Shown: positions 22,546 through 40,055, counted from the stretch's first letter. The stretch is DNA of 64,000 bases from Candidatus Lachnoclostridium stercorigallinarum (GCA_019116745.1 DXBC01000121.1:10953-74952), one strand, 5' to 3'. The notes: generated from the sequence alone by a model not told the origin. Numbers and translations: made by a program.

Positions 22546-23316
22546 TTACGCAAGTATGATTTCAATTCCCTGTTCTCTCAGCTTGTCAATGTTTTCTTTA
22601 TTTTCCTCAGTTTCCACAGTTATGATCGTGTCTATCTCGCGAAAGTCGCAGAACGGGTAAAAACCGCTGGACAAAAACTTGGAAGAGTCGATGAGCAGCA
22701 CTACCTTGTTGGAAACCTGAACCATTTTCTGCTTGATATCCAGAAGGAAGGGCGTCGATATGGTGGGCCCGGTGGTATGAAGAATGCCGCAGGAGCCGAT
22801 AAAGGCAATATCTGCGTGGATCCCAGAAAAGAATTCCTTTGTCTGCACGCCATAGATGGTCTTGCTGTAGTGATGAACGACGCCCGGCGGCATGGAGACT
22901 GTGGAAAAATTGGACAGGGAAAGGGCGACATCCAGGCCGTTGGTGATGATACAGCTGTTGTTGAGCTCCTTATGGACGTTCAGCTCTTTTGCCAGTTCCA
23001 GAATCGTGGTTCCTGAATCCAGCAGAATAGAATAATGATTGTCTATCATCTGAAGAGCGCGCTTTGCGATTCGCTGCTTCTCAGACTGGAACATGCCGAT
23101 CCTGTACCGATTGTCGTCGTTGTTGTAATCTTCGTTTAGAAAAGCATATCCGCGGGAGCGCCGTATCTGGTGATTCGCCTCAAGCTCCAGCAGATCCCTT
23201 CTTATGGTGGTGGGAGTCACGGAAAAGAGCTTTGACAGCTCATCTACCGCTACCGCCTTTTTCTGAAGCAGGAGCTTCATGATGGCGTCCTGCCTGTAAT
23301 TTCCCTTATTGGCCAT
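22546..23316 (-). CDS. DeoR/GlpR family transcriptional regulator
   Basis: ELSKLFSVTPTTIRRDL HTH, EKQRIA, LDSGTT, ITN, DSSKF; RBS aaaggagg. Confidence 0.93.
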   Translation of the reverse strand: MANKGNYRQDAIMKLLLQKKAVAVDELSKLFSVTPTTIRRDLLELEANHQIRRSRGYAFLNEDYNNDDNRYRIGMFQSEKQRIAKRALQMIDNHYSILLDSGTTILELAKELNVHKELNNSCIITNGLDVALSLSNFSTVSMPPGVVHHYSKTIYGVQTKEFFSGIHADIAFIGSCGILHTTGPTISTPFLLDIKQKMVQVSNKVVLLIDSSKFLSSGFYPFCDFREIDTIITVETEENKENIDKLREQGIEIILA

Positions 23317-23637
23317 GTCGTTCCTCCTTTAAAGAACCCCCATTCAATCCGGCTGCGGGGGGCGGCGCCGTATATTTTGGTGAGGTGCTGTGATTTAATC
23401 ATAGTATAACATGAAACAACTTTATAGTAAATAACGAACATTTGATTTCGAACAAAAAAGTGCGCAAAAATTATCAGATAATGAATTTGCGTGAGTATTA
23501 TTGACGATAATATGCGTAATGTGTTATATAAAATTATAGAAAAAGTACAAAGCACGACATAAAAAGAAAAAATAAAACGAATATATTTTTCTTTTATGAA
23601 CATTAAAACGCAAAAAAGAAATGGAGAAAACGAAAAA
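23317..23637. promoter_or_regulatory. AT-rich divergent promoter region (deoR / btpA operon) with candidate operator repeats
   Basis: TTGACG at 23501 followed by TG-T-TATATA at 23522-23530; repeated CGAACA/CGAATA/TGAACA motifs. Confidence 0.55.
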
Positions 23638-24447
23638 ATGTTTCAAGAAGCTCGCCAAAACAATCAGAAACTGATATTCGGGCTCATTCATCTGAAGCCT
23701 ATGCCCGGGACGCCGTTTTATAAGGAAGGAGATTATGAGGCGTCCATTGAAAAGGCGGTAAAGGACGCCAAGGCCCTGGAAAACGGCGGAGCGTCCGGCT
23801 GCCTGATACAGACGGTGGATAAGGTCTATCCCACCGGGGATGACAGCGACTACGTCAGAGCGACCTGCCTGGCAGTCATCGCAAATGAAGTGAAAAAACA
23901 TGTGGGGGCGGATTTCAAAATCGGAGTTCAGCTTATGTGGAACTGCATCACGCCGTCCATTGCAGCGGCAAAGGCAGTGAACGCAGATTATACCAGATGT
24001 ACGGCCCTTGTGGGACAGACCTCCTCGCCTTTTGGAGGCGTGATCAATGCGGATCCCCTGAAAGTGCTGGAATACAGGAAAAAGATAGACGCGGAAAATG
24101 TGGAGCTGCTGGCGGAAATCGCAGGCTATCATTTCCACGGCGGATATGATAAGGAAGCCCTGCTCAGCCGTGTAAGCTCGGCTGTGATGGTGAGAGCCAA
24201 TGCGGTGGAGATCATGAGCAAGGACGAAGAACTGAACAACCGTATGGAACTGGACATCAGGGCGGCATATCCCGATCTTCCCATCATCCTGGGAGGAGGC
24301 ACTGATGTGGAAAGCGCGGCTTCCCGGTTGAAAAACGCGGACGGCGCTCTCGTAGGAAGATGCTTTGAGGGGAATAACTGGGGAGGCGGCATAGATGAAG
24401 CCATCGTCGCCGCTTATATGAAAGAAGTAAGAAGCATTTCGGGTTAA
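23638..24447 (+). CDS. BtpA/SgcQ family TIM-barrel protein (divergent)
   Basis: GLIHLKPMPGTP, DAKALENGG, LGGG, ADGALVG; ATG 23638 behind ggag. Confidence 0.85.
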   Translation: MFQEARQNNQKLIFGLIHLKPMPGTPFYKEGDYEASIEKAVKDAKALENGGASGCLIQTVDKVYPTGDDSDYVRATCLAVIANEVKKHVGADFKIGVQLMWNCITPSIAAAKAVNADYTRCTALVGQTSSPFGGVINADPLKVLEYRKKIDAENVELLAEIAGYHFHGGYDKEALLSRVSSAVMVRANAVEIMSKDEELNNRMELDIRAAYPDLPIILGGGTDVESAASRLKNADGALVGRCFEGNNWGGGIDEAIVAAYMKEVRSISG

Positions 24448-24568
24448 GTACAACAATACCGATGGCTGAAATGGGGAAATGTTAGCAAAAATTCCGCTTC
24501 CGGACCTGCCTTCTGCACAGAGTCCGGGGCGGGGAATTTAAAAAAATATTTATAAGGAGGAAAAAGAT

Positions 24569-25765
24569 ATGAAAAAACGTTTTGTGGGACTTTTGGCGGC
24601 GGGTATGCTTGCGGCGACGCTTGCAGGCTGCGGGGGGTCGACAGAAGAAACTACAGCGGCAAATGCGGCTGCAGGGACAACCGCAGAAGAGGGAGCGGAG
24701 ACTTCCGGTGAGAATACGGATTCTCCGGAGGGCAAAAAGCTGCTGTTCTTTGCTTTCCAGAACATCGGTGACTACGGAACCAACGACCTGGGATATTATG
24801 CGGCTCAGGAGATTGCAGAAAAGTATGACATTGAGATGACCCTGGTGGAAGGCGGAATGGACGCATCCACGAGAACCACAACGCTTCTGGATGCCATTGA
24901 GACAGGCGGATATGACTATGTAATCAGCTCCAGCTGGTATATTCAGGATGATCTGCTGGCCAATGTGGACAGATTCCCGGATATGAAGTTTATCCTCTAT
25001 GATACGGCTCCCACCCTGGATCTGAGCGAGTATCCCAATGTGTTCGGCGTAAGCTTCAGACAGGACGAAGGATCCTTCCTTACCGCTATTTACCAGTGCC
25101 TGATGTCCGAAAACCACAAGATCGGCGCAGCGGCCAACCAGGACTCCCCGATCCTCAACGACTTCGTGACCGGCTGGCTGGCAGGCGTGAAGTACTACAA
25201 CGACAATATGGCGGCAGACGGCGAAGAAGTTGAGTACAACATCGCCTACTATTCTGATCAGACCGTTCAGGGCGCTTATGAGACCGTAAACGTACTTTAC
25301 AACAACGGCTGTGATGTGGTTTACAACATCGGCGGAAGCTATTGCGTAGGCGCATTAAATGCCTGCTCTGAGCACGGCGGAATCGAGAATGGCCAGTATC
25401 TGATCGGTGTTGATTACGACCAGTATACCACCTTTGCAAATGCAGAAACTGAAGTGGCCGGCTATGAGAACCTTGTAACCTCCATGGAGAAGAGAATCAC
25501 AGAGTGCTGCGTACTTGCATTTGACGGAATCGTGAGCGGCGATATGGAAATGGGCAACCACAGATTCGGCGTTGCAGACGGCGGTACAGGACTTGCGTAC
25601 AACGAGAACTACTACGCTCATACTCCTGAGGACGTTCAGAACACCATAACTGAAATTGAGCAGAAGATCGCCAACGGCGAGATCGTAGTGCCCAGCTATT
25701 ATGATCTTCCGGACTATGATACCTTTGCACAGTTCAGAGATGATCCTGACTATCGTTTACAGTAA
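24569..25765 (+). CDS. BMP-family ABC transporter substrate-binding lipoprotein (nucleoside/sugar type)
   Basis: Lipobox LAGC, IGDYGTND, FRQDEGSF, GCDVVY, IGVDYDQ, TSMEK, IANGEIVVP. Confidence 0.9.
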   Translation: MKKRFVGLLAAGMLAATLAGCGGSTEETTAANAAAGTTAEEGAETSGENTDSPEGKKLLFFAFQNIGDYGTNDLGYYAAQEIAEKYDIEMTLVEGGMDASTRTTTLLDAIETGGYDYVISSSWYIQDDLLANVDRFPDMKFILYDTAPTLDLSEYPNVFGVSFRQDEGSFLTAIYQCLMSENHKIGAAANQDSPILNDFVTGWLAGVKYYNDNMAADGEEVEYNIAYYSDQTVQGAYETVNVLYNNGCDVVYNIGGSYCVGALNACSEHGGIENGQYLIGVDYDQYTTFANAETEVAGYENLVTSMEKRITECCVLAFDGIVSGDMEMGNHRFGVADGGTGLAYNENYYAHTPEDVQNTITEIEQKIANGEIVVPSYYDLPDYDTFAQFRDDPDYRLQ

Positions 25766-25802
25766 TCGCAATTAGGCAAATCGTAATTAAGCAAATTTTC
25801 AT

Positions 25803-25833
25803 AGGGCTGCCGCGGGGTTGGCGGCAGCCCTTT
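25803..25833 (+). terminator. Stem-loop after the binding-protein gene (partial terminator or mRNA stabiliser)
   Basis: agggctgccgc / gcggcagccct perfect 11 bp stem, short T-run. Confidence 0.7.
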
Positions 25834-25855
25834 AAGATTGAAGACAGGTGGAGTG

Positions 25856-27406
25856 ATGGCAAAAGAACTTTTAAAAATGGAAGGGATAACGAAAATTTAC
25901 GGTAATGGATTTATGGCCAACAAGGACATCACCTTTACGGTAAATGAAGGAGAAATCCACGCGCTGATCGGAGAAAACGGCGCTGGCAAGACGACTCTCA
26001 TGAAGATACTTTTCGGTCTTGAAAATTGTCAGCAGGGAAAAATCTATCTCAACGGAGAAGAAGCGCACATAGAGAATCCGCTGGACGCCATTGCAAAAGG
26101 CGTCGGTATGGTACACCAGCACTTCATGCTGGTACCGAATCTGAGTGTAGCGGAAAATGTGGTTCTCGGCATTGAACCGGGACCGGGACAGATATTTGAC
26201 AAGAAGACGGCCATCCGCATGACGGAAGAGGCGTCGGAAAAATTTCAGCTCAAGGTAGATCCGAATGCCCTTGTACGAGATATCAGCGTGGGGTTAAAGC
26301 AGAAGGTAGAGCTTCTCAAGGCGCTGATCCGCGGAGCAAAGGTATTAATTCTGGACGAACCGACGGCTGTGCTGACTCCCCAGGAAGTAAGGGAGCTGTT
26401 TGTTCAGCTCAAGTCGCTGAAGGAGAGCGGCTACGGCATTATTTTTATTTCTCACAAACTGGACGAGGTTATGGAACTCTGTGATTCGGCCACTGTACTG
26501 AGACATGGAAGAGTCACCGGTTTCGTAAAAAAAGAGGAGATGAATGAGCTTCTGCTTTCAAAGCTGATTGTGGGAAGAGATGTGGTAAGCACCATTGAAA
26601 AGAGCGAGAGCACCGTGGGCGATACGGTTCTGAAAATACGAAATGTCACTTACGTGGACGACATCGGGAAAAAACTGGTGGATGACGTCTCTTTCGGCGT
26701 CAGAGCCGGCGAGATTGTGGGCATTGCAGGCGTGGAGGGAAACGGACAGAACGAGATTTCCGAAATTATAACCGGTCTGCTGCACATGACAAAAGGAACG
26801 GTGAGCATAAACGGCACGGAAACCACCGGCCTGAACATCGCTCAGATCAGAAAACTGGGTCTTGCACATATTTCAGAGGACCGTATGACCTATGGATGTG
26901 CTCAGGATATGTCCATATACGACAACCTCTCATCCATCTACCTGGACAATCCCAAATTCACAAAGGGCGTTTTCGTAAACCAGAAGATACTGGATCAGTA
27001 TGTGAAAGACTGTATCGAAGAGTTTGAAATCGCCTGTGATTCTGAGAAGAGTCCGGTGAGGATGCTTTCAGGAGGAAATATACAGAAGGTAATCGTGGCC
27101 AGGGAGTTTACCAGCGGAGCCAATATCATTATCGCGAATCAGCCTACCAGAGGCATCGACGTGGGTACCGCTTCCCTGATACACAAACTTCTGCAGAAAT
27201 ATACCAGAGAAAAGGGATTCGCCGTTCTTCTGATTTCTTCAGACCTGAACGAAGTTATGAACCTCTCAGACAGGCTGCTGATTATGAGAGACGGCAGAAT
27301 TGCCGCACATTTCACGGATATGAAAAAGGTAAATGACGAGCTGATGGGCGAGTATATGCTTGGCATCAGAAAAATGAGTGAAGAGGAAAGGGGGGAGCTG
27401 TATTGA
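25856..27406 (+). CDS. ABC transporter ATP-binding protein, tandem-domain sugar/nucleoside type
   Basis: GENGAGKT, MVHQHF, LDEPT, ISHKL, GVEGNGQ, LSGGNIQK, QPTRGID. Confidence 0.94.
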   Translation: MAKELLKMEGITKIYGNGFMANKDITFTVNEGEIHALIGENGAGKTTLMKILFGLENCQQGKIYLNGEEAHIENPLDAIAKGVGMVHQHFMLVPNLSVAENVVLGIEPGPGQIFDKKTAIRMTEEASEKFQLKVDPNALVRDISVGLKQKVELLKALIRGAKVLILDEPTAVLTPQEVRELFVQLKSLKESGYGIIFISHKLDEVMELCDSATVLRHGRVTGFVKKEEMNELLLSKLIVGRDVVSTIEKSESTVGDTVLKIRNVTYVDDIGKKLVDDVSFGVRAGEIVGIAGVEGNGQNEISEIITGLLHMTKGTVSINGTETTGLNIAQIRKLGLAHISEDRMTYGCAQDMSIYDNLSSIYLDNPKFTKGVFVNQKILDQYVKDCIEEFEIACDSEKSPVRMLSGGNIQKVIVAREFTSGANIIIANQPTRGIDVGTASLIHKLLQKYTREKGFAVLLISSDLNEVMNLSDRLLIMRDGRIAAHFTDMKKVNDELMGEYMLGIRKMSEEERGELY

Positions 27407-28500
27407 AAAAGGTACAGAGAGTCGAGGCTTTGTTTGAATTTCTGCGGGTAGTGCTGGGTCTTCTTCTGGCGTATGTGATCACGCTGGTGATTATTATTCT
27501 GACCTCTGACGTGTCCCCTCAGGAAGTAATAACGAATTTCGTTTTGGGCCCCTTTACCACGCCCAGACGTTTCGGACAGCTCATGGGAAAATTTATTCCC
27601 TATGTGCTGGGCGGCTGCGGAATGTGCTTTATCTATGGCTGCGGACGCTTCAATCTTATCGGCGAGGGAGTTGTGAACTTTGCCCCTGCGGTAGCCTGTA
27701 TTGTACTGTTTAATACTCCCATATTCAATAATCTGCCGTGGATTGCCGGAGTAGGGCTGCTGCTTATAATCTGCTGTGCAGTGGGCGGCGGCCTGGCCAT
27801 GATACCTGCGGTGGGAAGAGAGAAACTGAAGATCTCCGAGATGGTTACTTCCATTATCATGAACTATATGCTTCTCTATCTCTCCCTCTGGTTCCTGAAG
27901 ATTTTCTTCGCGGACCGGTCGCAGGCATTCCTGTGCAGCCCCATGTATCCGGACAACGCCAGCTTCTTCCAGATCTGGGAGGGAACCAATCTCCATGCGG
28001 GAATCTTTGTCAGCATCATCGGCTGGATTGTGGCCTGCCTGATGTTCAACCGCATGAGAATCGGCGTAAAAATCAGAATCTGCGGCTCCAACGGAATGTT
28101 TGCAAGATATTCCGGACTGAACACAACGAAGATCGTACTGATCGCTCAGCTTATAGGCGGTATCTACGCCGGAGCGGCAGCCTGTGTGGACGCGTTTGGA
28201 ATGTATACCAGATATCAGTACAGCGTACTGACCAACATCGGAATGGACGCCCTGGTAGTTGCAGTTATCGCGAGAAAGAAACCCATATTTATCCCGCTTT
28301 CCGCGTTTGTACTGGCATATATCAGAACGTCGGCAGTTGTGCTGAACCTCTCGACCAACATTCCGATCGAGTTCGTAAACATGATGCAGGCAGTGCTGAT
28401 CTTCTTCGTGGCAGCGCAGAGCTTCTTAAAGAAGTCGAAGGAGAAGGCAATCTATAAAATTTCCATGGAAGAAAACAAGGAGAAAGGAGCGGTGGTATGA
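27403..28500 (+). CDS. ABC transporter permease 1 (nucleoside-type)
   Basis: FNLIGEG, SEMVTSIIMNY, G.N..FARYSG; overlaps the ATPase stop. Confidence 0.9.
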   Translation: MKKVQRVEALFEFLRVVLGLLLAYVITLVIIILTSDVSPQEVITNFVLGPFTTPRRFGQLMGKFIPYVLGGCGMCFIYGCGRFNLIGEGVVNFAPAVACIVLFNTPIFNNLPWIAGVGLLLIICCAVGGGLAMIPAVGREKLKISEMVTSIIMNYMLLYLSLWFLKIFFADRSQAFLCSPMYPDNASFFQIWEGTNLHAGIFVSIIGWIVACLMFNRMRIGVKIRICGSNGMFARYSGLNTTKIVLIAQLIGGIYAGAAACVDAFGMYTRYQYSVLTNIGMDALVVAVIARKKPIFIPLSAFVLAYIRTSAVVLNLSTNIPIEFVNMMQAVLIFFVAAQSFLKKSKEKAIYKISMEENKEKGAVV

Positions 28501-29450
28501 GTTTGGAATATATCGAGACATTTCTGTTCTCGGCAGTCAGAATCGCTACTCCCATCATGTATGTGGCTCTCTGCTCCACCATAGCTTTGCAGGGAGGCCT
28601 TACCAATATGGCGGCTGAGTCCATGATGCTGATTTCGGCAGTTACGGGAGTTATCTTCTCGGCAATTACCCAGAATCTGCTCATCGGTATCCTGGCCGGC
28701 ATGATGAGCTCGATTCTCATCACTCTGTTTCTCTGCTTTGCCGCGTTTGTCATGAAGGTGGACCTGTACCTAATGTCCATCGCTCTGAACACGGCCATGA
28801 GCGGCGCCACGATTTACATTATGTATGTGACCACAGGCAACAAGGCCAATACGGCAGGATATTTCGCCTCCCTTCAGATGCCTGACATCAACATTCCCAT
28901 CATAGAAGATATTCCCATTATAGGAAGTATTCTGTCGGGACACAATGGATTTACCTATCTGGCAGTGGTCATGATATTTGTAGTGTGGTTTATTATCTTC
29001 CGCACAAAACTGGGCCTGAGAATCCGTGCCGTGGGACAGAATCCTCAGGCGGCGGAATCCGTGGGAATCAATCCCAGCAAGATTTACACCATCGCTTTTG
29101 TGATGGCCAGCGCCATCGCAAGCCTTGGCGGTATGTTCCTTTCCATGGGATATCAGAATATGTTTATCAGGGATATGACAGGAGGAAAGGGATTCATCGG
29201 TATGGCGGCGGCTACCATCGCCGGAGCTTCGCCGGTAGGTTCCGCGCTGCTTGCAGTGGTATTCGGAGTGGCAGAGGCCGTGACCAACTACTCCAAGCTT
29301 TACATTACAGACGCGCAGTTTCTGTCGGCAATGCCGTACATTATCACCACAGTGCTGCTCTTTATACTTTCCTATATCCGTCTGAAGAATAATGAAAGCG
29401 ATATGAGAAAGAGAAAAGCGGCTGCTTTGAAGGCACATGAAAACGCTTAG
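28497..29450 (+). CDS. ABC transporter permease 2 (nucleoside-type)
   Basis: RIATP, TKLGLRIRAVGQNPQAAESVGI, GKGFI, MPY; ATGA overlap. Confidence 0.9.
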   Translation: MSLEYIETFLFSAVRIATPIMYVALCSTIALQGGLTNMAAESMMLISAVTGVIFSAITQNLLIGILAGMMSSILITLFLCFAAFVMKVDLYLMSIALNTAMSGATIYIMYVTTGNKANTAGYFASLQMPDINIPIIEDIPIIGSILSGHNGFTYLAVVMIFVVWFIIFRTKLGLRIRAVGQNPQAAESVGINPSKIYTIAFVMASAIASLGGMFLSMGYQNMFIRDMTGGKGFIGMAAATIAGASPVGSALLAVVFGVAEAVTNYSKLYITDAQFLSAMPYIITTVLLFILSYIRLKNNESDMRKRKAAALKAHENA

Positions 29451-29468
29451 GATACCGGAGGCTTAGTT

Positions 29469-30413
29469 ATGGATTATGTAATAGGGGGAAACGTGATGCT
29501 GGATACCGTCCGCTTCCCCGGAGAAAATACTTCATCTCATGAACATATAGGAGGTCCCGCCACATTCGCTTATTCCGGAGTGCGGCTGTATACGGACAGC
29601 GTCATGCAGTGCTCCAATGTGGGCGAGGACTACGAACCCCTTTTTATCCCCTGGATGGAGAAAAATGAAGTTTTCAGAGAGGGACTTAAGGTAAAGGTGG
29701 AACACTGCAACCATTCTTACCTTGTATACAATGAGGACGGTACCTACAGCTCGGATCCCACAGTAAAGAGATTCCGCAGCGACTGGATCCAGGACTTCGG
29801 CTATATGAAAACGTCTCCGGAGGAGATCGGGGAGTGGACAAAAGGTGGAGGAGTGAAGGGCGTTTATGTGGCCCAGAATGTGGACCGGGTATTCTGGCGG
29901 AAAATGAAGGAGATCAAGGCGAGAGACGGTTTCAAGCTCATGTGGGAGATCGAAGGGCCCAGCTCCTATAAGGAATTTATGCCGGAAGTCATGAATGCCA
30001 TGGAAAACGTGGACATCTTTTCCATCAACATACAGGAGGCGAGACTTCTCTTTGAAGTGAAGTCGGAGGAAGAGTGTATCCGGGAACTGCAGAAATGCCC
30101 TGTGGATATGACCCTTTTCCGTGTAGGCGCAAGAGGCGCCTACATGGTGACGCCGGAACGGTATTACTACCTGCCGCCGGCGCCGTCAGACAGAATCGTA
30201 GATCCCACAGGCTGCGGCAACACATCCACAGGAGCGGCTCTGTACGGGTATGCGGAAGGCTATGACGCGCTGAAGGTGGGCATTATCGCTAATGTGGCGG
30301 CCGCCCAGAATATACGGCAGTACGGGGTTATGCCTGATTTTAAGGCAGTGAGAGACTTTGCCCTGAACCAGGTGGACGAACTGTACAGGCAGTATAAGGC
30401 CAAATATGATTGA
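29469..30413 (+). CDS. PfkB/ribokinase-family protein with atypical GCGN anion-hole motif
   Basis: N-terminal GGPA, SINIQEA (NxxE), GARG, VDPTGCGN. Confidence 0.85.
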   Translation: MDYVIGGNVMLDTVRFPGENTSSHEHIGGPATFAYSGVRLYTDSVMQCSNVGEDYEPLFIPWMEKNEVFREGLKVKVEHCNHSYLVYNEDGTYSSDPTVKRFRSDWIQDFGYMKTSPEEIGEWTKGGGVKGVYVAQNVDRVFWRKMKEIKARDGFKLMWEIEGPSSYKEFMPEVMNAMENVDIFSINIQEARLLFEVKSEEECIRELQKCPVDMTLFRVGARGAYMVTPERYYYLPPAPSDRIVDPTGCGNTSTGAALYGYAEGYDALKVGIIANVAAAQNIRQYGVMPDFKAVRDFALNQVDELYRQYKAKYD

Positions 30414-30436
30414 TCAATTTGTGGAGAATAATTGAT

Positions 30437-31627: not shown

Positions 31628-31636
31628 GGTACATAT

Positions 31637-32476
31637 ATGTTCAGACGGGAATATATAGAAACGGAATTCAAGGGCTACCCCTCGATTACCCAGAGGCTGA
31701 ATGAGCTTGTGGAGGAAAGCGGAATCCAGGAAGGACTCTGCATCGTCAGCGTTCCGGAGCTTACCACGGCTCTCTGCATTACCTCTTTCTGGGATAAGAG
31801 GGGGCTGGATGACCTGATGGATGAGATCGACCGCAATTTCCCGGCCCGGGTAAACTACAAAAGCCAGATCACACCCTTTGACTCCGCGGGAAATGTGAAA
31901 GCCGCCGCGGTGGGAAGAAGTCTGACCCTTCTGGTGCACGGGGGCAAGCTGATTTTAGGCTCCTCCCAGGGCGTGGTGCTGCTGGAGTTTGACGGACCGA
32001 GAAAACGGGCCTTTGAGGTACAGATTGCTGAACGGGAAATGAAGCTTTATAAAACCGGCATTAAAACCCGATATATGGGGATGTGCAATATGACAGAGTG
32101 GGTGAGATCCTGCGTAAAGAACAGCGGAATCCGGGAAGGCCTCTGCCACATTTCCCAGCTTCATTCCACAGCCGGCGTGATTCTATGCGACGCCACGGAA
32201 AACGGGGCAGCGGATATTATGGGAGATATTGAAAAAATGGTTCCCACACGGGCCGATTTCAAGCACAGGGAGACCGCTTCCGATGCAGGCGGCCATGTAA
32301 AAACCGCATTGACGGGAAGTCAGATTTCCCTGCCGGTGCATGAGGGAGAGCTGGTGATCGGAGACCGGCAGGGAATCGTGTTTGCCGAGTTTGACGGCCC
32401 CAGGCCGAGGACCGTTTACGCGGCCGTGATGGCCAGCCAGTTTTATATAGGGCAGAATGGAGATTTCAATGGATAA
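31637..32476 (+). CDS. Tandem two-domain YjbQ/UPF0047 protein
   Basis: Two repeats each with SGI.EGLC and QG.V..EFDGPR.R; second repeat has HSTA and FKH...DAGGHVK. Confidence 0.87.
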   Translation: MFRREYIETEFKGYPSITQRLNELVEESGIQEGLCIVSVPELTTALCITSFWDKRGLDDLMDEIDRNFPARVNYKSQITPFDSAGNVKAAAVGRSLTLLVHGGKLILGSSQGVVLLEFDGPRKRAFEVQIAEREMKLYKTGIKTRYMGMCNMTEWVRSCVKNSGIREGLCHISQLHSTAGVILCDATENGAADIMGDIEKMVPTRADFKHRETASDAGGHVKTALTGSQISLPVHEGELVIGDRQGIVFAEFDGPRPRTVYAAVMASQFYIGQNGDFNG

Positions 32477-33626
32477 AACGATACATGACAATCAGCTGCG
32501 CAGACAGTGTCTGGATATACCGGTGATGTGCGAAGCGCAGTTAAGCGGGATCAGAAAAGGGCTTGAGGCGGTGCCGGATGAGCTTTTGAAAAAAATAAGA
32601 AAGGTGATCCTGACCGGCTGCGGCGATTCCTATTTCGCAGGCATAGCCGCCGTGCCCGCCTTTAAAAAGTATGCGGGGGCGTTTGCATCCTCTTTTGAGG
32701 CAGTGAGGTGCATGGACGCTGCCCGGTATCTGGAGTATGAAAAAGGTCAGGAGGACGCCACGCTGGTGGTGGCGGTCAGCGCTTCCGGAAGCCCCGTCAG
32801 GGTCATGGAGGCGTTAAGGAGAGCCAATCAAAAAGGGTGCCATACCCTGGCGGTGACGAATATTCCCGATTCCAGGGCGGCAAAAGAGGCCGAGTATTCC
32901 CTGATCGTTCACACTCCTCCTTTCCCTGAACCGGGTCCGGGACTGAGAAACTACTTTGCCTCCATCTCCGCTTTGTTTTTGCTGGCGGCCAGGATGGGGA
33001 CTGTGAAAGGCTGCTGCGATGCCGGAAGCGAGGAGGCTCTGTGCAGAGCCATCGCCGAATACACCGATTCTTACGCAAAGGCTTTTGACGCCATGGATAC
33101 CCTGATGTTTGACATGGCGAAGGAATGGAAGGACGACATCGGAAATGAGATGATCGGCGACGCTTCCATGTACGCCACAGCGGCATTTATCGGGGCCAAA
33201 TTTGTGGAAGCTGCAGGGAAGATGACCAATGCCGTGGATTCGGAAAACTGGTGCCACGTGAACTTTTTCCGGCACCGGCCAGAACAGTCAGGGCTCATCC
33301 TGGTGGCAGACAGCGCCGATCACAATCATTCGAGAATGACAGAAACCATGCAGCAGGCTGTGAAGATTGGAAGAAGCTGCATCCTGATCACAGATACGGA
33401 TGGGGAGAGCTACGGGGCGCCGGAAGGCGTAACGGTGTGTACCGTTCCCGGTACGCCGGAAGGGTATGGATTCCTGTCTCCTCTTCTCAATTACATACCG
33501 GGAACTTTGCTGGCAGCATATATTGCTTCTCTGCGGGGAGAGACCTATTTCAGAGCGGAGGATTCTCTGCAGAAGCGGTCTGAAGTCGGTTCTACCATAG
33601 GAGACAGCAGAGTCGAGATTTTTTAA
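32469..33626 (+). CDS. Double-SIS-domain protein 2
   Basis: TGCGDS, VSASG, VTN.P.S, PGLRNY, KFVE, ENWCH. Confidence 0.87.
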   Translation: MDKTIHDNQLRRQCLDIPVMCEAQLSGIRKGLEAVPDELLKKIRKVILTGCGDSYFAGIAAVPAFKKYAGAFASSFEAVRCMDAARYLEYEKGQEDATLVVAVSASGSPVRVMEALRRANQKGCHTLAVTNIPDSRAAKEAEYSLIVHTPPFPEPGPGLRNYFASISALFLLAARMGTVKGCCDAGSEEALCRAIAEYTDSYAKAFDAMDTLMFDMAKEWKDDIGNEMIGDASMYATAAFIGAKFVEAAGKMTNAVDSENWCHVNFFRHRPEQSGLILVADSADHNHSRMTETMQQAVKIGRSCILITDTDGESYGAPEGVTVCTVPGTPEGYGFLSPLLNYIPGTLLAAYIASLRGETYFRAEDSLQKRSEVGSTIGDSRVEIF

Positions 33627-33638
33627 GGGAGATAGACT

Positions 33639-34028
33639 ATGTTTGTGCAAAACAGCGTTTGCGTTAAGGGGCAAAAAAGCCGGGATATCACTTCGGAGAT
33701 CGTAAAGGCGTCTGCGGAGAGCGGAGTAAAAGAAGGGATCTGCTGTGTTTCCGCCCTCAGCGAACATACGGGGATTGTGAGCATTCCTGAAAAAAGGCAG
33801 GAAATTCTTGAGGATATCCGGGATGACCTGGAGAGGATACTGCCGCCCAGGACCAATTACAGGGACTGCTGCGATCCTGAGCTGTCGGCTGGAAGAAGCA
33901 GGGCGGCCCTTCTGGAGTCTTCCAAAGATTTTATTATACATGAAGGAGAGGTTCTGATTTCGGGAAACGTATACCTTATGCCCTTTTCAGATACCTGTGA
34001 GTGCAGCTATACCATCACATGCTGCTGA
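33639..34028 (+). CDS. Degenerate single-domain YjbQ-like protein
   Basis: DIT..I.....ESGVKEGIC, DIRDDLERILP.R.NY, SAGRSRAALL aligns by eye to the repeats of 31637-32476. Confidence 0.72.
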   Translation: MFVQNSVCVKGQKSRDITSEIVKASAESGVKEGICCVSALSEHTGIVSIPEKRQEILEDIRDDLERILPPRTNYRDCCDPELSAGRSRAALLESSKDFIIHEGEVLISGNVYLMPFSDTCECSYTITCC

Positions 34029-34045
34029 TGAGTGGGAAGTGAAAC

Positions 34046-35032
34046 ATGGAAGCATATTTTTCGGTTGAAGTATCCATGTTCCTCACATTGCTGGCAGCGG
34101 CAATGTGGGGAAGCTGGATGCAGATTCAGAAGCACCTTCATGGCTATCCCATTGCAGGTGTGATATTCTGGCTTTATACATTTTCTTTTATTCTTATCTG
34201 GGCAATCACATTGATCGTATCACCGTTTCTGCTGGACAGGAGCATCCTGGAGATCTCTCTGGAAAATGCAGACACGGTTCTCACAATTCTGGTGGGAGGA
34301 GGACTCATGTCCATGGGACTTTACACCTCCCTGGTAGTGGTGGGAAAGGTGGGACTGCTGCTGTCCACCACTATCAGCGGCGGCATCGGAATCGTGCTGG
34401 GCGTCTTTACTTCCATAGCGGAGGAAGGGCTTCCGGAAGATGATGTGGCTCTCATGCTGATTGTCGTCTCCACAGTGATCTTTATTGCGGCGGGATTTGT
34501 CTGCGCGGCGGCCTCCAGTTCCAGAGATAAGGACCATAAAGTGAAGGAAAAAGCAGGAACCATGTCGGCCGGCGTGATTCTGCTGATGCTTTTCACCGCG
34601 ATTCTTCAAAATGGCTGGTCCATGGGAACGGCAGCGGGAACGGCCAGGAACTTTGCTCCTGTGCTCACCTGCGCCTATATGGCCACCGGATCGTTTATAA
34701 GCGTGGCTGTGGTGACGGGGATCAGCTTCACCCGGAAAAAGCAGTGGAAGCAGGTATTTGCGGTGGGAGAGAGCAAGGCCCCCATCGTGATGTCGGCGGG
34801 GGCGGCCCTCTGCCATTACGGGGGAAACCTGATGTCCATATATTCCATGCCGGCCCTCAGCGCCACAGTTTCTTTCCTGCTGGGGAAATCGGCAAATGTG
34901 TGGACCATATTCTGGGGAATGTACTATAAGGAGTTTTCCCATATAAGCAGAAAAACGAAAGTGCTTCTGTGGTCAGGCATAGGCCTGTATTTTGCAGGAA
35001 TTATCCTTTTAGGCATATATTATTTATTCTGA
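34046..35032 (+). CDS. Approximately 10-TM transporter, DMT-superfamily-like (ureide permease/RhaT/GlcU-like)
   Basis: AMWGSW at TM1 and WG...KEF near the C-terminus; two-fold hydrophobic pattern. Confidence 0.7.
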   Translation: MEAYFSVEVSMFLTLLAAAMWGSWMQIQKHLHGYPIAGVIFWLYTFSFILIWAITLIVSPFLLDRSILEISLENADTVLTILVGGGLMSMGLYTSLVVVGKVGLLLSTTISGGIGIVLGVFTSIAEEGLPEDDVALMLIVVSTVIFIAAGFVCAAASSSRDKDHKVKEKAGTMSAGVILLMLFTAILQNGWSMGTAAGTARNFAPVLTCAYMATGSFISVAVVTGISFTRKKQWKQVFAVGESKAPIVMSAGAALCHYGGNLMSIYSMPALSATVSFLLGKSANVWTIFWGMYYKEFSHISRKTKVLLWSGIGLYFAGIILLGIYYLF

Positions 35033-35054
35033 TCTTAGAGAGGTGAGTTGGGCG

Positions 35055-36326
35055 ATGGACAGAAAAAGAGGCGGACTGCATTACGCATGGAAGATCATGA
35101 TCGCATGTATGTGTATAAAAATGGGGTCTGCAGGCGCCTTGACCGTGGCCATGGGCAATTTTGTGACTCCCATTGTGCAGGAGCTGAACTGTGAGGTCAG
35201 CAGCCTTACCATGTTTGTCAGCATACAGGCCATGTCCATGGCGCTTATGTACACCCTGGCGTCAAGAATACTGATGAGCAGAAAAATAGGTCGGGTTATG
35301 GGAATCGCCTCTGTGGCTGAGGTGAGCGGACTGGCGCTGATGGCCACCTATCATTCGCCGTATATGTTTTACCTGTCCGGACTGGTCACGGGAGTGGCTC
35401 AGGCGTTTACCGGCTATGTGGCCATACCGACAGTGATCAATATGTGGTTTAAGAAAAAAGCAGGTACAGTGCTGGGAATGGTGATCGCGGTGGGCAGCGC
35501 GGCCGGCATTTTCTACAATATGCTGTCAGCAAAACTGATCGTCGTATTTGGATGGAGAGCGGCATATCTGATACTGGCCCTCATAGCGGCTGTGGTTACC
35601 ATACCTGCTGTATTTATGATCATAAAGACTCCCAGGGAGATGGGGATTGCTCCTTACGGGGAAGAACACGGAACTGCCGCCGCAGGAGAGAGGAATACAC
35701 CTGTCGGTACAGAGGACGGATACGGACTGACTCTGAAGCAGGCCTTCCATTCCGGTTTCTTTTACCTGGCCTGGATCGCCTGCATACTCATAAGCTACGC
35801 CAGCGGTGTTTCAGGCTATACGGCCACATATACCACTATGGAGCTGAAGCAGAGCATTGAGTTTGGTTCCATTGCAGGTATCTGCGTCAATGTGGGCACC
35901 ATTATCAGCAGCATTGTGCTGGGAAGGCTCAACGACAGGCTGGGCGTCAGAGCCGGACTTCTGTGGGGAGCCGGTACGGCCTTTGCGGGCTATTCCATTA
36001 TGCTGCTGAGCCGGACAAATCCGGTCCTGGTTCTTCCGGGCGCGTTTATCGTGGGACTGGGAGCCAGTATGTATGCGGTGCAGTGTCCGCTTCTGGCAAA
36101 GAAAATTGTGGGAGACAGGCACTATTCTCAGATCTGGTCCTGGATGATGATGGCAAACAGTCTGATCGGAGGCGGCCTGTATTCTTCCATAGGCATGTTT
36201 TACGACAGATTCGGAAGCTATAAAGGGACGTTTATTATGGCAATCGTTCTCTATGCAGGAGCCATGATCATAGGAATGGCAGCCCTTTCCGCGTCCGAGA
36301 GAAAGAAAAAGAGAGAGTTTGGTTGA
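35055..36326 (+). CDS. MFS transporter 1
   Basis: HYAW N-terminus, INMWFKKKAGTVLG, GRLNDRLG, YD..GSY; 12-TM pattern. Confidence 0.88.
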   Translation: MDRKRGGLHYAWKIMIACMCIKMGSAGALTVAMGNFVTPIVQELNCEVSSLTMFVSIQAMSMALMYTLASRILMSRKIGRVMGIASVAEVSGLALMATYHSPYMFYLSGLVTGVAQAFTGYVAIPTVINMWFKKKAGTVLGMVIAVGSAAGIFYNMLSAKLIVVFGWRAAYLILALIAAVVTIPAVFMIIKTPREMGIAPYGEEHGTAAAGERNTPVGTEDGYGLTLKQAFHSGFFYLAWIACILISYASGVSGYTATYTTMELKQSIEFGSIAGICVNVGTIISSIVLGRLNDRLGVRAGLLWGAGTAFAGYSIMLLSRTNPVLVLPGAFIVGLGASMYAVQCPLLAKKIVGDRHYSQIWSWMMMANSLIGGGLYSSIGMFYDRFGSYKGTFIMAIVLYAGAMIIGMAALSASERKKKREFG

Positions 36327-36328
36327 TT

Positions 36329-37597
36329 ATGGGAACAAAAGCTGGGAAAAGGCACTATGCGTGGACCATCGTCGTCTGCTGTGTGCTGATCTATTTTACA
36401 ACAAGTGTGGTTACAGTCAGTCTGGGGAACTTTGTCTCGCCGGTGGTGAATGACTTCGGCATTCAGGTGAGGCAGCTGACGCTGACAAACAGCATTGAGT
36501 GCGCGGTTATGGCTGTGCTCTATCCGGTGGCAGGGAAGGTACTGAATACGAAAAAGCTGAGCATTGTGGTGCCTTCCGCTCTGCTTCTGATGCTGTTGGG
36601 AATGTTTCTCATGGGTTCCTACAGCTCTGTATATGGATTTTATGTATCCGGAGTGATGATCGGTATCGGCTCCGCCTTTACACAGTATCTGGCCATGCCG
36701 CTGATCATCAATATGTGGTTTAAGAAAAAGACGGGCACGGCCCTGGGCATCTGTGTGTCCTGCGGCAATGCCTTCGGCATCCTGTTTAATCTGATCAGCG
36801 CGCAGCTGATCGTGCGCACCGGATGGAGATCGGCATATCACATTCTGGCGCTGATCCCCCTGATCGTTGCCCTCCCCTATGTGGTGACTCATCTGAAAAG
36901 CCCGGCGGAGGTGGGATGCAGGCCTTACGGCGCGGAGGAGGCGGAAGCGGAGGCTCTGGCCGATCCCAACGCCGGCATGGCATGGGGCGTGACGAGAAAG
37001 CAGGCGTTCCGCCTGCCCATGCTCTACTTTGCATGGATGGTTTGCCTCTGCTACAGCGTGGGAAGCAGCGTGCCCAACTATATCGCGACCTTTGCCACCC
37101 TGGAGTTAGGAACCAGTGTGGAGCTGGGATCCATAGCCTCCAGCATCTACAGTGTCGGCTCTGTCTGCTGCGGCTTCCTTCTTGGAAAGATCAACGACAG
37201 GTACGGAGTGAAGGCCGGCATGACCTGGGGCATGGTATTTATGGCTCTGGGTATGGGCGGGCTGATGCTCTCCATACAGAACAGCGCCCTGCTGATTCCG
37301 TCCTGCTTCCTGACCGGATTCGGCGGACTGAATATGTACAGCGTGCAGGCGCCTCTGGTGGCCCGCACCGTAGTGGGAGACCGGTACTATTCGGAGATCT
37401 GGGCTGTGCTCATGATCGGAAACAGCATGATCGCCGCGCTGGTATACTCGCCTATCGGGGGAATTTATGATGCGACGGGATCATTTGCCGGAGCCTTTGT
37501 GCTGGGTACCGTTACCTATACGGCAGCTTTGATTTTTGGAATTATCGCTCTCAACATGAGCAGAAAATATAGAGAGACTCACGAAAGAGCTCTTTAA
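36329..37597 (+). CDS. MFS transporter 2 (paralogue of the upstream gene)
   Basis: HYAW, INMWFKKKTGTALG, GKINDRYG, VGDRYYSEIW, YDATGSF. Confidence 0.88.
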   Translation: MGTKAGKRHYAWTIVVCCVLIYFTTSVVTVSLGNFVSPVVNDFGIQVRQLTLTNSIECAVMAVLYPVAGKVLNTKKLSIVVPSALLLMLLGMFLMGSYSSVYGFYVSGVMIGIGSAFTQYLAMPLIINMWFKKKTGTALGICVSCGNAFGILFNLISAQLIVRTGWRSAYHILALIPLIVALPYVVTHLKSPAEVGCRPYGAEEAEAEALADPNAGMAWGVTRKQAFRLPMLYFAWMVCLCYSVGSSVPNYIATFATLELGTSVELGSIASSIYSVGSVCCGFLLGKINDRYGVKAGMTWGMVFMALGMGGLMLSIQNSALLIPSCFLTGFGGLNMYSVQAPLVARTVVGDRYYSEIWAVLMIGNSMIAALVYSPIGGIYDATGSFAGAFVLGTVTYTAALIFGIIALNMSRKYRETHERAL

Positions 37598-37623
37598 ATA
37601 AAATAATTAGGAGGAGAATAAGC

Positions 37624-38826
37624 TTGAAAAGAGACAGCTACACAAATTCTGTTTTGCATCAGGTGCGGGATCTGAGAGAGCTTGCCGGGATTCAGAAGGA
37701 GAAGTGCTTTGATCTGGAAAAGCTTTCCCGGATTATGGAAAGGGAGAGCTGCGCAGGGATCAAAAGGGTGATACTTACGGGCTGCGGAGATTCCTATTCC
37801 GCTGCGGGGGCAATGCTTCCCGGCTTTAAAAAGCTGAGCGGTTTAAAGCTCTGCAACGCCCCGGACATCATGGATTTCTGTCACTATTATAGCCGGGAGA
37901 AGATCCTGAGAGGCCGGAAGCCGGAGGAGGTGCTGGTGGTGGCCATCAGTTTCAGCGGCTCGGCAGAAAGGCTGGCCCAGGCCCTTGAGAAAGCCTCAGA
38001 GTTGGGGGCAAAGACCATGATTATCACGAAAAATCCTGATTCCAGGGGAGGCCGGGCCGCGGAGATGGTTTTTAATGTGGAGACTCCCGACGGCTGCAAT
38101 TCTCCGGGACTTCGCTCCTATTACGCCAGCATGGTGGGGATTGCGGCTCTGGGAGCTTACATAGGCGTCTGCAGCGGCCGCCTGAGCAAAGAAGATTTTT
38201 ATAAGACGGGAGAAGAAATCGCCGGATATACTCTCCGTTTTATGGAGGATCTGGATCGGATCGATGAGGAAATGTTTGCGGAAGCCGTCCGGATGAAAGA
38301 CCTGAGAAAATTTGAGGTCATAGCGGATGGAAATGAAGGAAGCTCCGCCCAGTTTGTGGAGCAGAAGTTTATTGAGTGCAGCGGGGTATACTGCGATCAC
38401 ACCACTTCGGAGGAATTTGCCCACATCAGCTATTTCTTCCGGGGACCGGAGGAATTCGGCACGGTGGTTATGATCAACGGGGCGGATAAAAGTCTGAGCC
38501 GTATGAAGGATACCGTAGGCGGCTGTCTGGCCCAGCAACGCCCCACTGTTGTGGTGACAGATCTGGAAGAGGCGGAGTTTGAAGTGCGGCAGCGGGATAC
38601 CAGCGATATTGACAATTTCTACGGCATCGCTGAAATGGGGGTAAATTCCATGGAAAAAGCGGGCCGGGCGTCTGTCTGCCGTATTGCGGAGGCACCGCAG
38701 CAGTGGATGTCTCCCTTTGTGGACTTCATCCCCGGATCTCTGCTGGCAGCTTATCATGCGGCGGTCAATGAGCACAATTTCTTTAACGGACGCTTTGATT
38801 TCAGAACGGAAACTTGGATCGGTTGA
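37624..38826 (+). CDS. Double-SIS-domain protein 3
   Basis: TTG start behind aggagg; TGCGDS, ISFSG, PGLRSY, KFIE, EEFAH. Confidence 0.87.
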   Translation: MKRDSYTNSVLHQVRDLRELAGIQKEKCFDLEKLSRIMERESCAGIKRVILTGCGDSYSAAGAMLPGFKKLSGLKLCNAPDIMDFCHYYSREKILRGRKPEEVLVVAISFSGSAERLAQALEKASELGAKTMIITKNPDSRGGRAAEMVFNVETPDGCNSPGLRSYYASMVGIAALGAYIGVCSGRLSKEDFYKTGEEIAGYTLRFMEDLDRIDEEMFAEAVRMKDLRKFEVIADGNEGSSAQFVEQKFIECSGVYCDHTTSEEFAHISYFFRGPEEFGTVVMINGADKSLSRMKDTVGGCLAQQRPTVVVTDLEEAEFEVRQRDTSDIDNFYGIAEMGVNSMEKAGRASVCRIAEAPQQWMSPFVDFIPGSLLAAYHAAVNEHNFFNGRFDFRTETWIG

Positions 38827-38834
38827 GGTGAGCC

Positions 38835-40004
38835 ATGTATAGAAGATTAAATGATGAAAAGTATTACAGAAAGTTTTATTTTCAGGACAGTTTTCACGCT
38901 CAGTGCATGGATGTGGAACCTTTAAGCCTTATCCAGACAGAGCGTTCTGCGGAGGCAGTGAGAGGCATTATCAATGCTCCTGTATTTAAACAGGTGAAAC
39001 ATATTATCGCCAGCGGCTGCGGCGATTCCAATCTGGTAGCTTTTGCAGTTAAGGGGGCCTTTGAACATTATCTGCCTGAGGCGGAATATGAAGCGGTGGA
39101 AGCCATAGAGCTGAGCCGTCACTATGATTATGAAGGGAGAAGCGAGGACACCATCGCTTTCTTCATCAGCTATTCGGGAAAGATTTACCGCACCATAGAG
39201 GCTATGGAGCAGTGCAGGAGGCACGGCATCACCACTGTGGCGGTGACGGACAATCCGGAATCAGCCACCGCAAAGGCTGCGGATATCCTCTGCTATACCA
39301 ATATTCCAAAAGGGGACAACAACGCCGGTCTCCGCACCTATTTTGCCAATGTCCTGACCATGATGACCATGGCGGCCGCTATAGGGGAGGTTCAGCACGG
39401 CGTGGAGAACATTTCCGCTTTCGGGGACGCGGTGAGAATGTACCACAGCGGCTTTTTCGCAAAACTGGCAGAGATCGATGACAGCTGCTTTGCGGCAGCG
39501 ATCCGCTGGATGGATAAGAAATACCTTGAGATTACCGGTGACGGCCCTCAGTTCTGGGCGGGGAAATTTATCCAGGCAAAGGTGGTGGAGCTCTCCGGCG
39601 ACGCCTGCGCCGTCATTGACAGCGAGAATTTCAAACACGTCAACGTGATGATGGAGCCGGGAAATGAAATCGGAGAACTGGTGCTCATCAACACCAATGA
39701 CAGCAATCTTTCCCAGATCGTGGAAACGGTAAAGGTTATGACGGGAAGAGGGAAAAGAGATGTGCTTCTCTTCTGCGATAAAAAACCGGAGGAAATCGGC
39801 TTGGAAGCCGATGTGGTGTACTGTCCCATGCCGGTGCCGGATAAGGAGTACAACTTTCTGGCTCCCCTCTACACCTACCTTCCCGGGGCGATCTTTGCAG
39901 GCTTCCGCCACACGACCATAGGGGAGCCCATGTTCCGCGGAGGCATGGATCCCAGCATCTTCATTCCGACTTACTATTCGCCGGTGGACGTGGTGGACCT
40001 GTGA
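38835..40004 (+). CDS. Double-SIS-domain protein 4
   Basis: SGCGDS, ISYSG, VTDNPES, AGLRTY, KVVE, ENFKH. Confidence 0.87.
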   Translation: MYRRLNDEKYYRKFYFQDSFHAQCMDVEPLSLIQTERSAEAVRGIINAPVFKQVKHIIASGCGDSNLVAFAVKGAFEHYLPEAEYEAVEAIELSRHYDYEGRSEDTIAFFISYSGKIYRTIEAMEQCRRHGITTVAVTDNPESATAKAADILCYTNIPKGDNNAGLRTYFANVLTMMTMAAAIGEVQHGVENISAFGDAVRMYHSGFFAKLAEIDDSCFAAAIRWMDKKYLEITGDGPQFWAGKFIQAKVVELSGDACAVIDSENFKHVNVMMEPGNEIGELVLINTNDSNLSQIVETVKVMTGRGKRDVLLFCDKKPEEIGLEADVVYCPMPVPDKEYNFLAPLYTYLPGAIFAGFRHTTIGEPMFRGGMDPSIFIPTYYSPVDVVDL

Positions 40005-40055
40005 GGGGGAGAGGGGCCTGAACATAAAAACATAATCTTCTTCCTTTTTTAACAG

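Follow-up and report, generated by a model that had tools for sequence, protein, structure and literature searches.

The best precedent for the system described here comes from antibiotic biosynthesis. In the formation of altemicidin and SB-203208 a unit of SbzN, SbzO and SbzH removes ADP-ribose from a dihydronicotinamide ring, as told in the accessible parts of two reports (PMC9516700, PMC13518217). SbzO, a BtpA-family protein of 268 residues, acts in this in vitro reconstituted de-ADP-ribosylation together with SbzN, a sugar isomerase (SIS) protein of 385 residues (sizes from Table 1 of PMC13518217), and in the available part of PMC9516700 the authors themselves term the sbz enzymes functionally novel and their mechanism unresolved. 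Another BtpA-family gene, E. coli sgcQ, belongs to a phosphotransferase system (PTS) operon thought to handle pentitols (PMC13343008, accessible part), while yjbQ was still said to be of 'no clear function' in June 2026 in the available part of a preprint (bioRxiv 10.64898/2026.06.26.734693). BtpA, SIS and YjbQ proteins are encoded together in a gene cluster at positions 22,546 to 40,004 of a 64,000-nucleotide stretch of DNA from Candidatus Lachnoclostridium stercorigallinarum (GCA_019116745.1, DXBC01000121.1:10953-74952; the window, to which all positions refer). We propose, with confidence slightly above even, that this cluster serves to import a non-aromatic N-riboside, which would be 5'-phosphorylated by a PfkB protein with an Asp-to-Asn exchange and cut at its N-glycosidic bond by pairs of SIS proteins together with BtpA, giving a pentose phosphate. 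The cluster's mode of action is likely that of SbzN/SbzO with a kinase supplying the substrate; it is neither a member of the frl family nor an sbz cluster.

The sequence-only reading of this DNA had described 15 co-oriented genes, a divergent deoR gene and a closing hairpin, and the list of open reading frames and the family scans bear this out: the 15 plus-strand genes (23638-40004) and deoR are all intact. The first two intergenic gaps measure 121 and 90 nucleotides and the remainder -8 to +26; from the first permease gene onward all genes overlap or are spaced by at most 26 nucleotides, the gap ahead of SIS1 being 23 nucleotides if its start lies at 30437. Profile scans assign the products to DeoR, BtpA (PF03437), Bmp, a CUT2-type ABC ATPase, two permeases, PfkB, four SIS proteins, UPF0047 (one gene with two domains and one with a single domain), a weakly matching RhaT-like member of the DMT superfamily and two MFS carriers.

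A scan with the kinase alignment, one genome per species, yielded 90 confirmed stretches, of which 80 were kept, corresponding to 71 loci. SIS genes are present in 49 of these, a BtpA at least 40% identical to that of the window in 39, a basic membrane protein (BMP)-type binding protein in 37 and YjbQ in 32, and the cluster is thus co-conserved, a point on which the sequence-only reading had asked for a check. SIS and SbzO-type BtpA occur together in 38/71 loci; SIS or some BtpA is within reach in 64, several of the other seven being short contigs. An ECF S component takes the place of the BMP protein in 15/71. Gene order is identical in five loci and all 13 scored elements are found in seven. 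Since order and content are kept across related loci, the cluster is not a chance assembly. Carriers include Lachnospiraceae, Oscillospiraceae, Limnochordia and Bacillus, and simpler forms exist in Rhizobium (a GGGN kinase, one SIS, one YjbQ and a phosphorylase) and in Chloroflexota. The distribution is patchy: 5/300 genomes of the family, 1/400 of the phylum (E < 1e-100) and 5/401 of a Chloroflexota sample. A distant group of loci (L054-L058, L062-L071) in Erysipelotrichaceae, Oscillospiraceae and Anaerolineaceae has an ECF transporter, a GCGN kinase, a divergent BtpA and an Asp-type PfkB, no SIS, and often a hydrolase or M24-fold gene. Furthermore, a hydrophobic protein of 144 residues and no known family (L027:14348-14782) follows BtpA or a second kinase in 18/71 loci; it was not found in the window cluster.

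The first gene of the cluster (23638..24447; PF03437) encodes a BtpA-family TIM barrel of 269 residues that groups with the SbzO-like clade. It is 36-46% identical to SbzO-like proteins compared with 21-30% to other full-length BtpA/SgcQ proteins, and in a tree of 32 rows the window-type proteins (11 rows) and the SbzO-like ones form sister clades with 100/100 support and a stem of 1.37, SgcQ and the other BtpA proteins branching apart. The SbzO-like rows are BtpA proteins from Rhodococcus, Nonomuraea and Streptosporangium; they are stand-ins drawn from sbz-like clusters in place of SbzO itself, and no named, authentic SbzO appeared among the best 120 matches. The top BtpA matches in the plasmid collection are three actinobacterial records (36-46% identity), each of which also holds one of the best SIS matches. 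In the Rhodococcus locus BtpA is accompanied by IleS, an LLM oxidoreductase, an aldose epimerase, a pyridoxal phosphate (PLP) enzyme matching PseP with E 1e-156, a TauD dioxygenase and an AMP ligase, with the SIS gene about 20 kb away. In Nonomuraea, SbzH-, SbzF-, SbzQ- and SbzP-like genes lie together with BtpA and SIS, the SIS gene being adjacent. By comparison with the accessible part of PMC13518217, the BtpA proteins of both loci are assigned, on gene content, to biosynthetic clusters for compounds derived from nicotinamide adenine dinucleotide (NAD) with the sbz layout. The Streptosporangium SIS-BtpA pair has no SbzH or SbzP nearby and adjoins a NUDIX hydrolase and 7-deazaguanine genes; it therefore fits the idea that SIS and BtpA may form a glycoside-cutting unit.

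That SbzO/SbzN-like pair (L074, plasmid NZ_CP109431.1, about 70-87 kb) stands beside folE-queE-queD, a phosphoribosyltransferase, the NUDIX gene and phosphotransferases, and the region is possibly an undescribed 7-deazapurine biosynthetic cluster. In two alphaproteobacterial loci (L141, L142) BtpA proteins of other clades lie beside PfkB kinases and ureide/allantoate-type hydrolases.

The window cluster shares with the sbz unit an SIS protein and a BtpA barrel of matching size, the Q-T-V-D/E and A-E-I-x-x-x-H motifs of SbzO-like proteins and several SIS motifs. It differs in being catabolic, with uptake, a regulator and exporters, in lacking SbzP and SbzH, and in adding a GxGN kinase, a predicted YjbQ trimer and SIS proteins in two alpha/beta pairs, at identities of 25-46%. 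The earlier statement that BtpA proteins have no settled function is therefore only partly upheld: a BtpA, SbzO, does have a reconstituted role, and the window protein belongs to the sister clade of SbzO-like proteins. The structural model of the window BtpA (predicted local distance difference test, pLDDT, 93) shows a phosphate-binding barrel of generic type, and no structural neighbour stands out: fold searches returned tied TIM barrels at Z 16-19, among them aldolases, hexulose-phosphate synthase and ThiE, and a sequence search of solved structures found no BtpA relative. Such a barrel would also suit the breakdown of nitrogen-free rare sugars, with BtpA as an epimerase, the SIS proteins as aldose-ketose isomerases and YjbQ as a mutarotase, an interpretation to which the pentitol link of sgcQ and the RhaT-like nature of the DMT carrier would lend themselves. 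We regard it as quite improbable. The sgcXBCQAER operon resembles the cluster in holding a BtpA-family gene in a DeoR-type sugar-phosphate operon, yet it relies on PTS uptake and has no SIS, and SgcQ is 23% identical to the window protein and sits in another clade; glycosides are indicated instead by uptake of the BMP type, by neighbouring nucleoside and ADP-ribosyl hydrolases and by the kinship with SbzN/SbzO.

Four SIS proteins are encoded. SIS1 (30437..31627), a double-SIS protein probably of the SbzN-like family, is of an alpha subtype and SIS2 (32469..33626) of a beta subtype (family scan and trees), while the trees place SIS3 (37624..38826) and SIS4 (38835..40004) as the alpha and beta subtypes of a second, YjbQ-free pair. 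SIS1 grouped with SIS3 and SIS2 with SIS4 in two trees, a third leaving this grouping open, and we read the four proteins as two alpha/beta pairs whose members, to go by their sequences, likely form heterodimers. All four retain the GxGDS motif, the SxSG loop and the isomerase Lys, Glu and His that align with GlmS; GxGDS, PGxRxY, KxxE and ExxxH are common to them and to SbzN-like proteins. They consist of 385-400 residues with SIS domains only and, unlike GlmS, carry neither a glutamine amidotransferase domain nor the C-terminal Lys tail (RNLAKSVTVE). The window SIS and SbzN-like proteins fall on one side of a branch with Shimodaira-Hasegawa approximate likelihood ratio (SH-aLRT) support of 82-94, which was not starred; the two later SIS trees leave out the long-branch rows L059 and L026.

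The combination of a PfkB kinase with GlmS-like SIS proteins had suggested kinship with FrlD/FrlB, and a cluster for the use of Amadori compounds (frl/fra/gfr) would import a fructosamine or ribulosamine, phosphorylate it and release aldose phosphate and amine by SIS deglycases. Fructosamine operons such as E. coli frlABCD, B. subtilis frlBONMD and Salmonella fra are well known, and gfrE/gfrF represent an operon with two deglycases, a precedent for more than one SIS enzyme. The likeness to frlABCD comprises import, phosphorylation by a PfkB kinase before an SIS enzyme releases the sugar phosphate, and a TIM-barrel helper, and the Glu and His aligned with GlmS and FrlB are present in all four window proteins. 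The kinship nevertheless does not stand. FrlB and GlmS form a branch of their own with support of 99-100, a clade of FrlB with the window SIS family is rejected by the approximately unbiased (AU) test (p-AU 0.0003), and the FrlB model NF008481 scores at most 28 bits on the window proteins against a cut-off of 430. E. coli FrlD keeps the catalytic Asp in a GAGD motif where the window kinase has GCGN, the frl transporter is of another class than the BMP/nucleoside type found here, BtpA and YjbQ are absent from E. coli frl, and the neighbours of related loci are nucleoside enzymes. We therefore consider Amadori utilization unlikely.

Several related loci contain genes of the TrpF-like family of Amadori isomerases, another point that would suit Amadori utilization; these genes, however, go with another kinase and with a nucleoside hydrolase, as they do in a separate locus of the genome to which the window belongs. 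A TrpF-like gene as replacement for BtpA was considered and dropped on account of this association and because both are present in L149 and L151. Outside trp operons TrpF-like (phosphoribosylanthranilate isomerase) genes were noted at L077:2699-3412, L022:13694-14500, L149:15040-15735 and L151:14244-15597, and this family, tied to a PfkB kinase and often to a nucleoside hydrolase, is possibly a catabolic Amadori isomerase.

The kinase gene (29469..30413) encodes a PfkB-fold protein (PF00294 above cut-off) that reads DPTGCGN, confirming the GCGN motif reported before, in which Asn replaces the catalytic Asp. Its model (pLDDT 90) has the ribokinase/nucleoside-kinase fold with a Foldseek template modelling (TM) score of about 0.7, and identity to solved chains is 12-19%, with no close solved relative. 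Of the best 150 profile matches, 126 have Asn at the catalytic position and 4 a residue other than Asn or Asp, 20 were not parsed, and no match showed Asp; Asn is also found in 116/121 paralogues in the loci, a figure biased by the search pattern. Up to six kinase paralogues occur in tandem, and one protein (P0439) is a natural fusion of a GCGN kinase with SIS. PfkB look-alikes in the Atlas carry generic names only. The ribokinase fold, the place of the gene behind the importer and the SIS fusion lead us to assume that the protein is still a kinase.

Uptake is assigned to a complete importer of the BMP/PnrA type, comprising a binding lipoprotein (24569..25765; PF02608), an ATPase of the CUT2/nucleoside type (25856..27406; family scan) and two permeases (27403..28500 and 28497..29450; both PF02653). 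In this make-up of Bmp lipoprotein, ATPase and two BPD_transp_2 permeases it resembles the nucleoside importers PnrA, TmpC and BmpA-D. The solved chains nearest to the lipoprotein, Lbp, BmpA, BmpD and TmpC, are nonetheless distant (best E 6e-23), and the protein keeps the VD and K motifs whereas the Phe of the D-K-S-F motif is absent and replaced in most orthologues as well. We take the Asp and Lys of PnrA-type proteins to be contacts to the ribose 2',3'-diol and the Phe to be a stacking residue. Three secondary carriers complete the set: a RhaT-like DMT-superfamily protein (34046..35032; NF010022 with E 4e-6, NCBIfam only), a counterpart of which is found in 31/71 loci, and two MFS proteins (35043..36326 and 36329..37597; PF07690) that are 42% identical to each other.

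Nucleoside hydrolases (17 loci) or phosphorylases (4 loci) lie within 10 kb in 20/71 loci, compared with an expectation of about 5-6% of 20-kb stretches calculated from seven matches in the 2.5-Mb genome of the organism itself. PsuG-like (L060), NTPase, TrpF-like and ARMT1-like genes are found in some related loci. Taken together with the BMP motifs, the ADP-ribosylglycohydrolase genes, the Bacillus enamidase operon and the ureide hydrolases beside other BtpA proteins, these neighbours indicate a ribose whose N-linked partner is either non-planar or acyclic, and they fit compounds from NAD as well as from RNA. The same genes would agree with a route for sugar-modified nucleosides, for example 2'-O-methylated ones from rRNA or tRNA, in which the base is released by a hydrolase encoded elsewhere and an odd pentose such as 2-O-methylribose is turned into ribulose or xylulose 5-phosphate by kinase, SIS, BtpA and YjbQ. 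SIS enzymes such as NagB-II and MurQ can expel C2 substituents, and a distant kinase-BtpA locus (L058) runs into genes that, judged by their sequence starts, resemble those for FGGY kinase, epimerase and class II aldolase. This route, too, has a low probability in our judgement, as hydrolases and phosphorylases are missing nearby in 51/71 loci and in the window, the BMP protein keeps the Asp and Lys presumed to bind the ribose 2',3'-diol, two MFS carriers and a DMT carrier suggest the export of a bulky leftover, and the SbzN/SbzO precedent is glycosidic cleavage and not conversion of a free sugar.

Genes for ADP-ribosylglycohydrolases lie beside all three of the single-SIS Lachnospiraceae loci analysed and two of six Chloroflexota loci, and the long form is found in 9/47 cluster-bearing genomes compared with 6/249 genomes at class level, the carriers including close kin. 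In L146 (3329-7545) and L148 (11702-15938) tandem ADP-ribosylglycohydrolases of 700 residues carry at the C-terminus an extension that matches no Pfam family; their operons also encode a sugar ABC importer, a GGGN kinase, SIS, YjbQ, a hydrolase and a deoxyribosyltransferase-like protein. At L147:2329-3705 an MtmB-like methyltransferase and an ADP-ribosylglycohydrolase adjoin SIS-YjbQ, which hints at a methylated aglycone in that lineage. The genome of the organism itself contains two satellite nucleoside loci with further BMP-ABC sets, one (C162, about 5.8-14.1 kb) with a hydrolase and a 746-residue ADP-ribosylglycohydrolase, the other (C22, about 12.4-24.5 kb; ATPase 56% identical to that of the window) with hydrolases, a TrpF-like gene and a PfkB gene.

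Between and behind SIS1 and SIS2 lie the YjbQ genes. The first (31637..32476) encodes two domains, A with TSFWD and SSQG loops and B with a full His/His/Asp/His set and EFDGPR; the second (33639..34028) encodes the degenerate domain C, a predicted third trimer subunit according to alignment and complex model. All three exceed the PF01894 cut-off. An alignment of 98 domains resolves the same three subtypes: A retains TSFWDxRG and SSQG, though frequently not its histidines; B has HSTAG, H-R/T-E, D-A-x-G-H and E-F/Y-DGPR but no longer the A-type loops; and C is degenerate. Single-gene YjbQ proteins of Rhizobium and three Lachnospiraceae carry every motif in one chain, and the known members of YjbQ/UPF0047 are single-gene homotrimers. 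Because the motifs are divided among A, B and C and whole in single-gene forms, the simplest reading is a homotrimer that turned into an A-B-C trimer. The modelled complex of AB with C scored 0.90, the best control only 0.01; contact agreement was 91% or higher and partner pLDDT 88 or higher. The mark was attained by 116/157 solved pairs and 2/215 mismatched pairs, although the pass may reflect likeness and not binding because solved YjbQ homologues exist. The three domains are predicted to form one asymmetric trimer with a single intact site at one interface. Fold family and the His/Asp motif set are as in E. coli YjbQ and PDB entries such as 1ve0, 2p6c and 1vmf; the window proteins differ in splitting the motifs over three subunits and in having S-F/P-W-D and S-S-Q-G in place of N-E-N-x-D and T-W-Q-G.

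All 32 loci with YjbQ also carry SIS1- and SIS2-type genes and, by gene type, the module SIS1-YjbQ(A)-YjbQ(B)-SIS2-YjbQ(C), a few with only two YjbQ genes, while SIS3-SIS4 occurs without YjbQ in 11 loci. The earlier count of four SIS and three YjbQ domains as separate activities is better replaced by two SIS pairs and one YjbQ trimer. A physical complex of SIS and YjbQ was considered but is not claimed, since the gene order can be accounted for by a unit of SIS and YjbQ that was duplicated in tandem.

From these features we infer the following route. The BMP-ABC system would take up a riboside that ordinary nucleoside hydrolases would not cut, and the GxGN kinase would convert it to the 5'-monophosphate; in the sbz pathway cleavage of the diphosphate of the dinucleotide comes before the glycosidic cut. 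In the SIS alpha/beta pairs His would open the furanose and Glu would shift the C2 proton in an iminium or Amadori-type reaction, and the pairs together with the SbzO-like barrel would release pentose 5-phosphate and the free N-compound. The YjbQ trimer would act with its single metal site in the SIS1/SIS2 branch only, where it may stand in for SbzH, the third sbz enzyme, or act as a hydrolase on an imine or amide that these SIS proteins leave behind. The cell would consume the pentose phosphate, the DMT and MFS carriers would export the aglycone, that is the nitrogen part, and DeoR would sense a phosphorylated intermediate. Paralogue expansion, with up to six tandem kinases and up to two SIS pairs, indicates a family of related substrates. 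Tentative candidates are nicotinamide ribosides in reduced, hydrated or anomerised form and ribosyl-amines left over from ADP-ribosylation; less likely ones are ring-saturated or ring-opened RNA nucleosides, for example dihydrouridine or ureido-ribosides. That the cluster represents a widespread, undescribed salvage of damaged NAD-derived ribosides, the primary-metabolic counterpart of SbzN/SbzO chemistry in antibiotic pathways, is the most far-reaching interpretation and a rather doubtful one.

A number of observations weigh against this proposal. The usual catalytic Asp of the presumed kinase is gone. The grouping of SIS with SbzN-like proteins is only moderate and was not resolved in the first tree, which held one wrong-strand row, and the comparisons use stand-ins for authentic SbzN and SbzO. 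Searches with tblastn found SbzH only in L133 and L134 among the loci examined, and no homologue of SbzH or SbzP occurs in any catabolic locus examined; the genome of the organism has one SbzH homologue, unlinked, on contig C180. The window operon has no nucleoside hydrolase, and ADP-ribosylglycohydrolase genes occur in 0/71 kinase-anchored loci. A Bacillus operon (L055) encodes an enamidase (PDB 2vun, E 1e-140) and an amidase, which taken alone would favour the proposal. The substrate of enamidase is a tetrahydro-oxonicotinate; as a general partner the enzyme was rejected, being found in 2/47 cluster genomes, one of them the query's own, and in 1/251 others, and the amidase is closer to RutB and N-carbamoyl amidases than to nicotinamidases. 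A distant SIS-BtpA locus (L136) has DeoC, which counts against the scheme because a 2-deoxy sugar could not undergo Amadori-type chemistry. Finally, in three of the six Chloroflexota loci the SIS gene stands without the remaining enzymes of the set, or is accompanied by nothing more than an Asp-type PfkB.

On the whole, the sequence-only reading was right to see here a catabolic system, co-conserved in related loci, whose substrate is a sugar-nitrogen or nucleoside-like compound, and right, within the literature searched (most subscription papers lay outside its reach), that no characterised pathway has this make-up; what it said on FrlD/FrlB, BtpA and separate activities needed revision.

The divergent regulator gene (22546..23316, minus strand; PF00455 with E 4e-39, PF08220) encodes a DeoR-family protein that stays under every equivalog cut-off and is predicted to be a repressor sensing a sugar-phosphate intermediate. 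A promoter scan places a deoR promoter at 23431-23403 on the minus strand, and the 10-base motif AACGAACATT (23433..23442), which adjoins its -35 box, is a plausible DeoR operator. With at most one mismatch it occurs in 16/18 orthologous DeoR-side intergenic regions, compared with a mean of 1.3 (maximum 4) in 100 shuffles, an enrichment that is optimistic because the motif was chosen from those same regions. For the operon itself a sigma-A promoter (TTGACG, 17-18 nucleotides, TATATA; 23501..23530, plus strand) is predicted from reading the sequence; it is not among the calls of the promoter scan, and similar TTGAC boxes are seen by eye in orthologous regions. A terminator-like hairpin (40051..40100, plus strand) has a stability of -26.7 kcal/mol (z -5.1), which 0/200 shuffles reach; it is missing from the results of a consensus terminator scan, probably on account of its 10-nucleotide loop. 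An Rfam scan of 15 related loci returned tRNAs only and no riboswitch. In contigs from four chicken-gut metatranscriptome runs of one study, operon and flanks are covered at like depth and past the hairpin; DNA carry-over is therefore possible and the runs are uninformative on co-transcription.

The hairpin is possibly shared with a HicB-like antitoxin gene (40112-40537, minus strand) that converges on it. Six nucleotides behind deoR, and likely co-transcribed with it, lies a gene for a hydrophobic protein of 110 residues (22207..22539, minus strand) for which family scans were blank; homologues occupy the same place in the five closest loci only (L001-L005). The nearest named relative is Ca. 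Lachnoclostridium avicola (L001), with a 96% identical kinase and the same left flank. According to labels from sequence reading, the permease gene (20719) and the ATPase gene (41519) of an apparent surface-polysaccharide export locus stand on either side of the cluster. This locus (20108-21528 and 41519-46844) comprises rfbC-like and ABC-2 permease genes on one side and ABC ATPase, methyltransferase-like and glycosyltransferase genes on the other, and the roughly 20 kb that split it hold the catabolic cluster, the hicB-like gene and mgsA.

The cluster links three poorly understood families, BtpA, YjbQ and GxGN PfkB, to one proposed route, and the SbzN/SbzO precedent points to candidate substrates that can be purchased or synthesised. 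Cultured strains with soluble catabolic relatives are Hungatella hathewayi WAL-18680, Lachnoclostridium sp. An14, Anaerofilum hominis BX8 and Bacillus sp. JJ1562. If salvage of damaged NAD-derived ribosides proved true, a physiological reaction could for the first time be ascribed to the YjbQ family, performed by a trimer of three different subunits that share one active site, and the kinases would form a new class of Asp-less PfkB enzymes. Should the substrates be vitamin B3 ribosides in reduced or damaged form, or modified nucleosides from RNA, the pathway would constitute an unmapped sink for them in gut communities.

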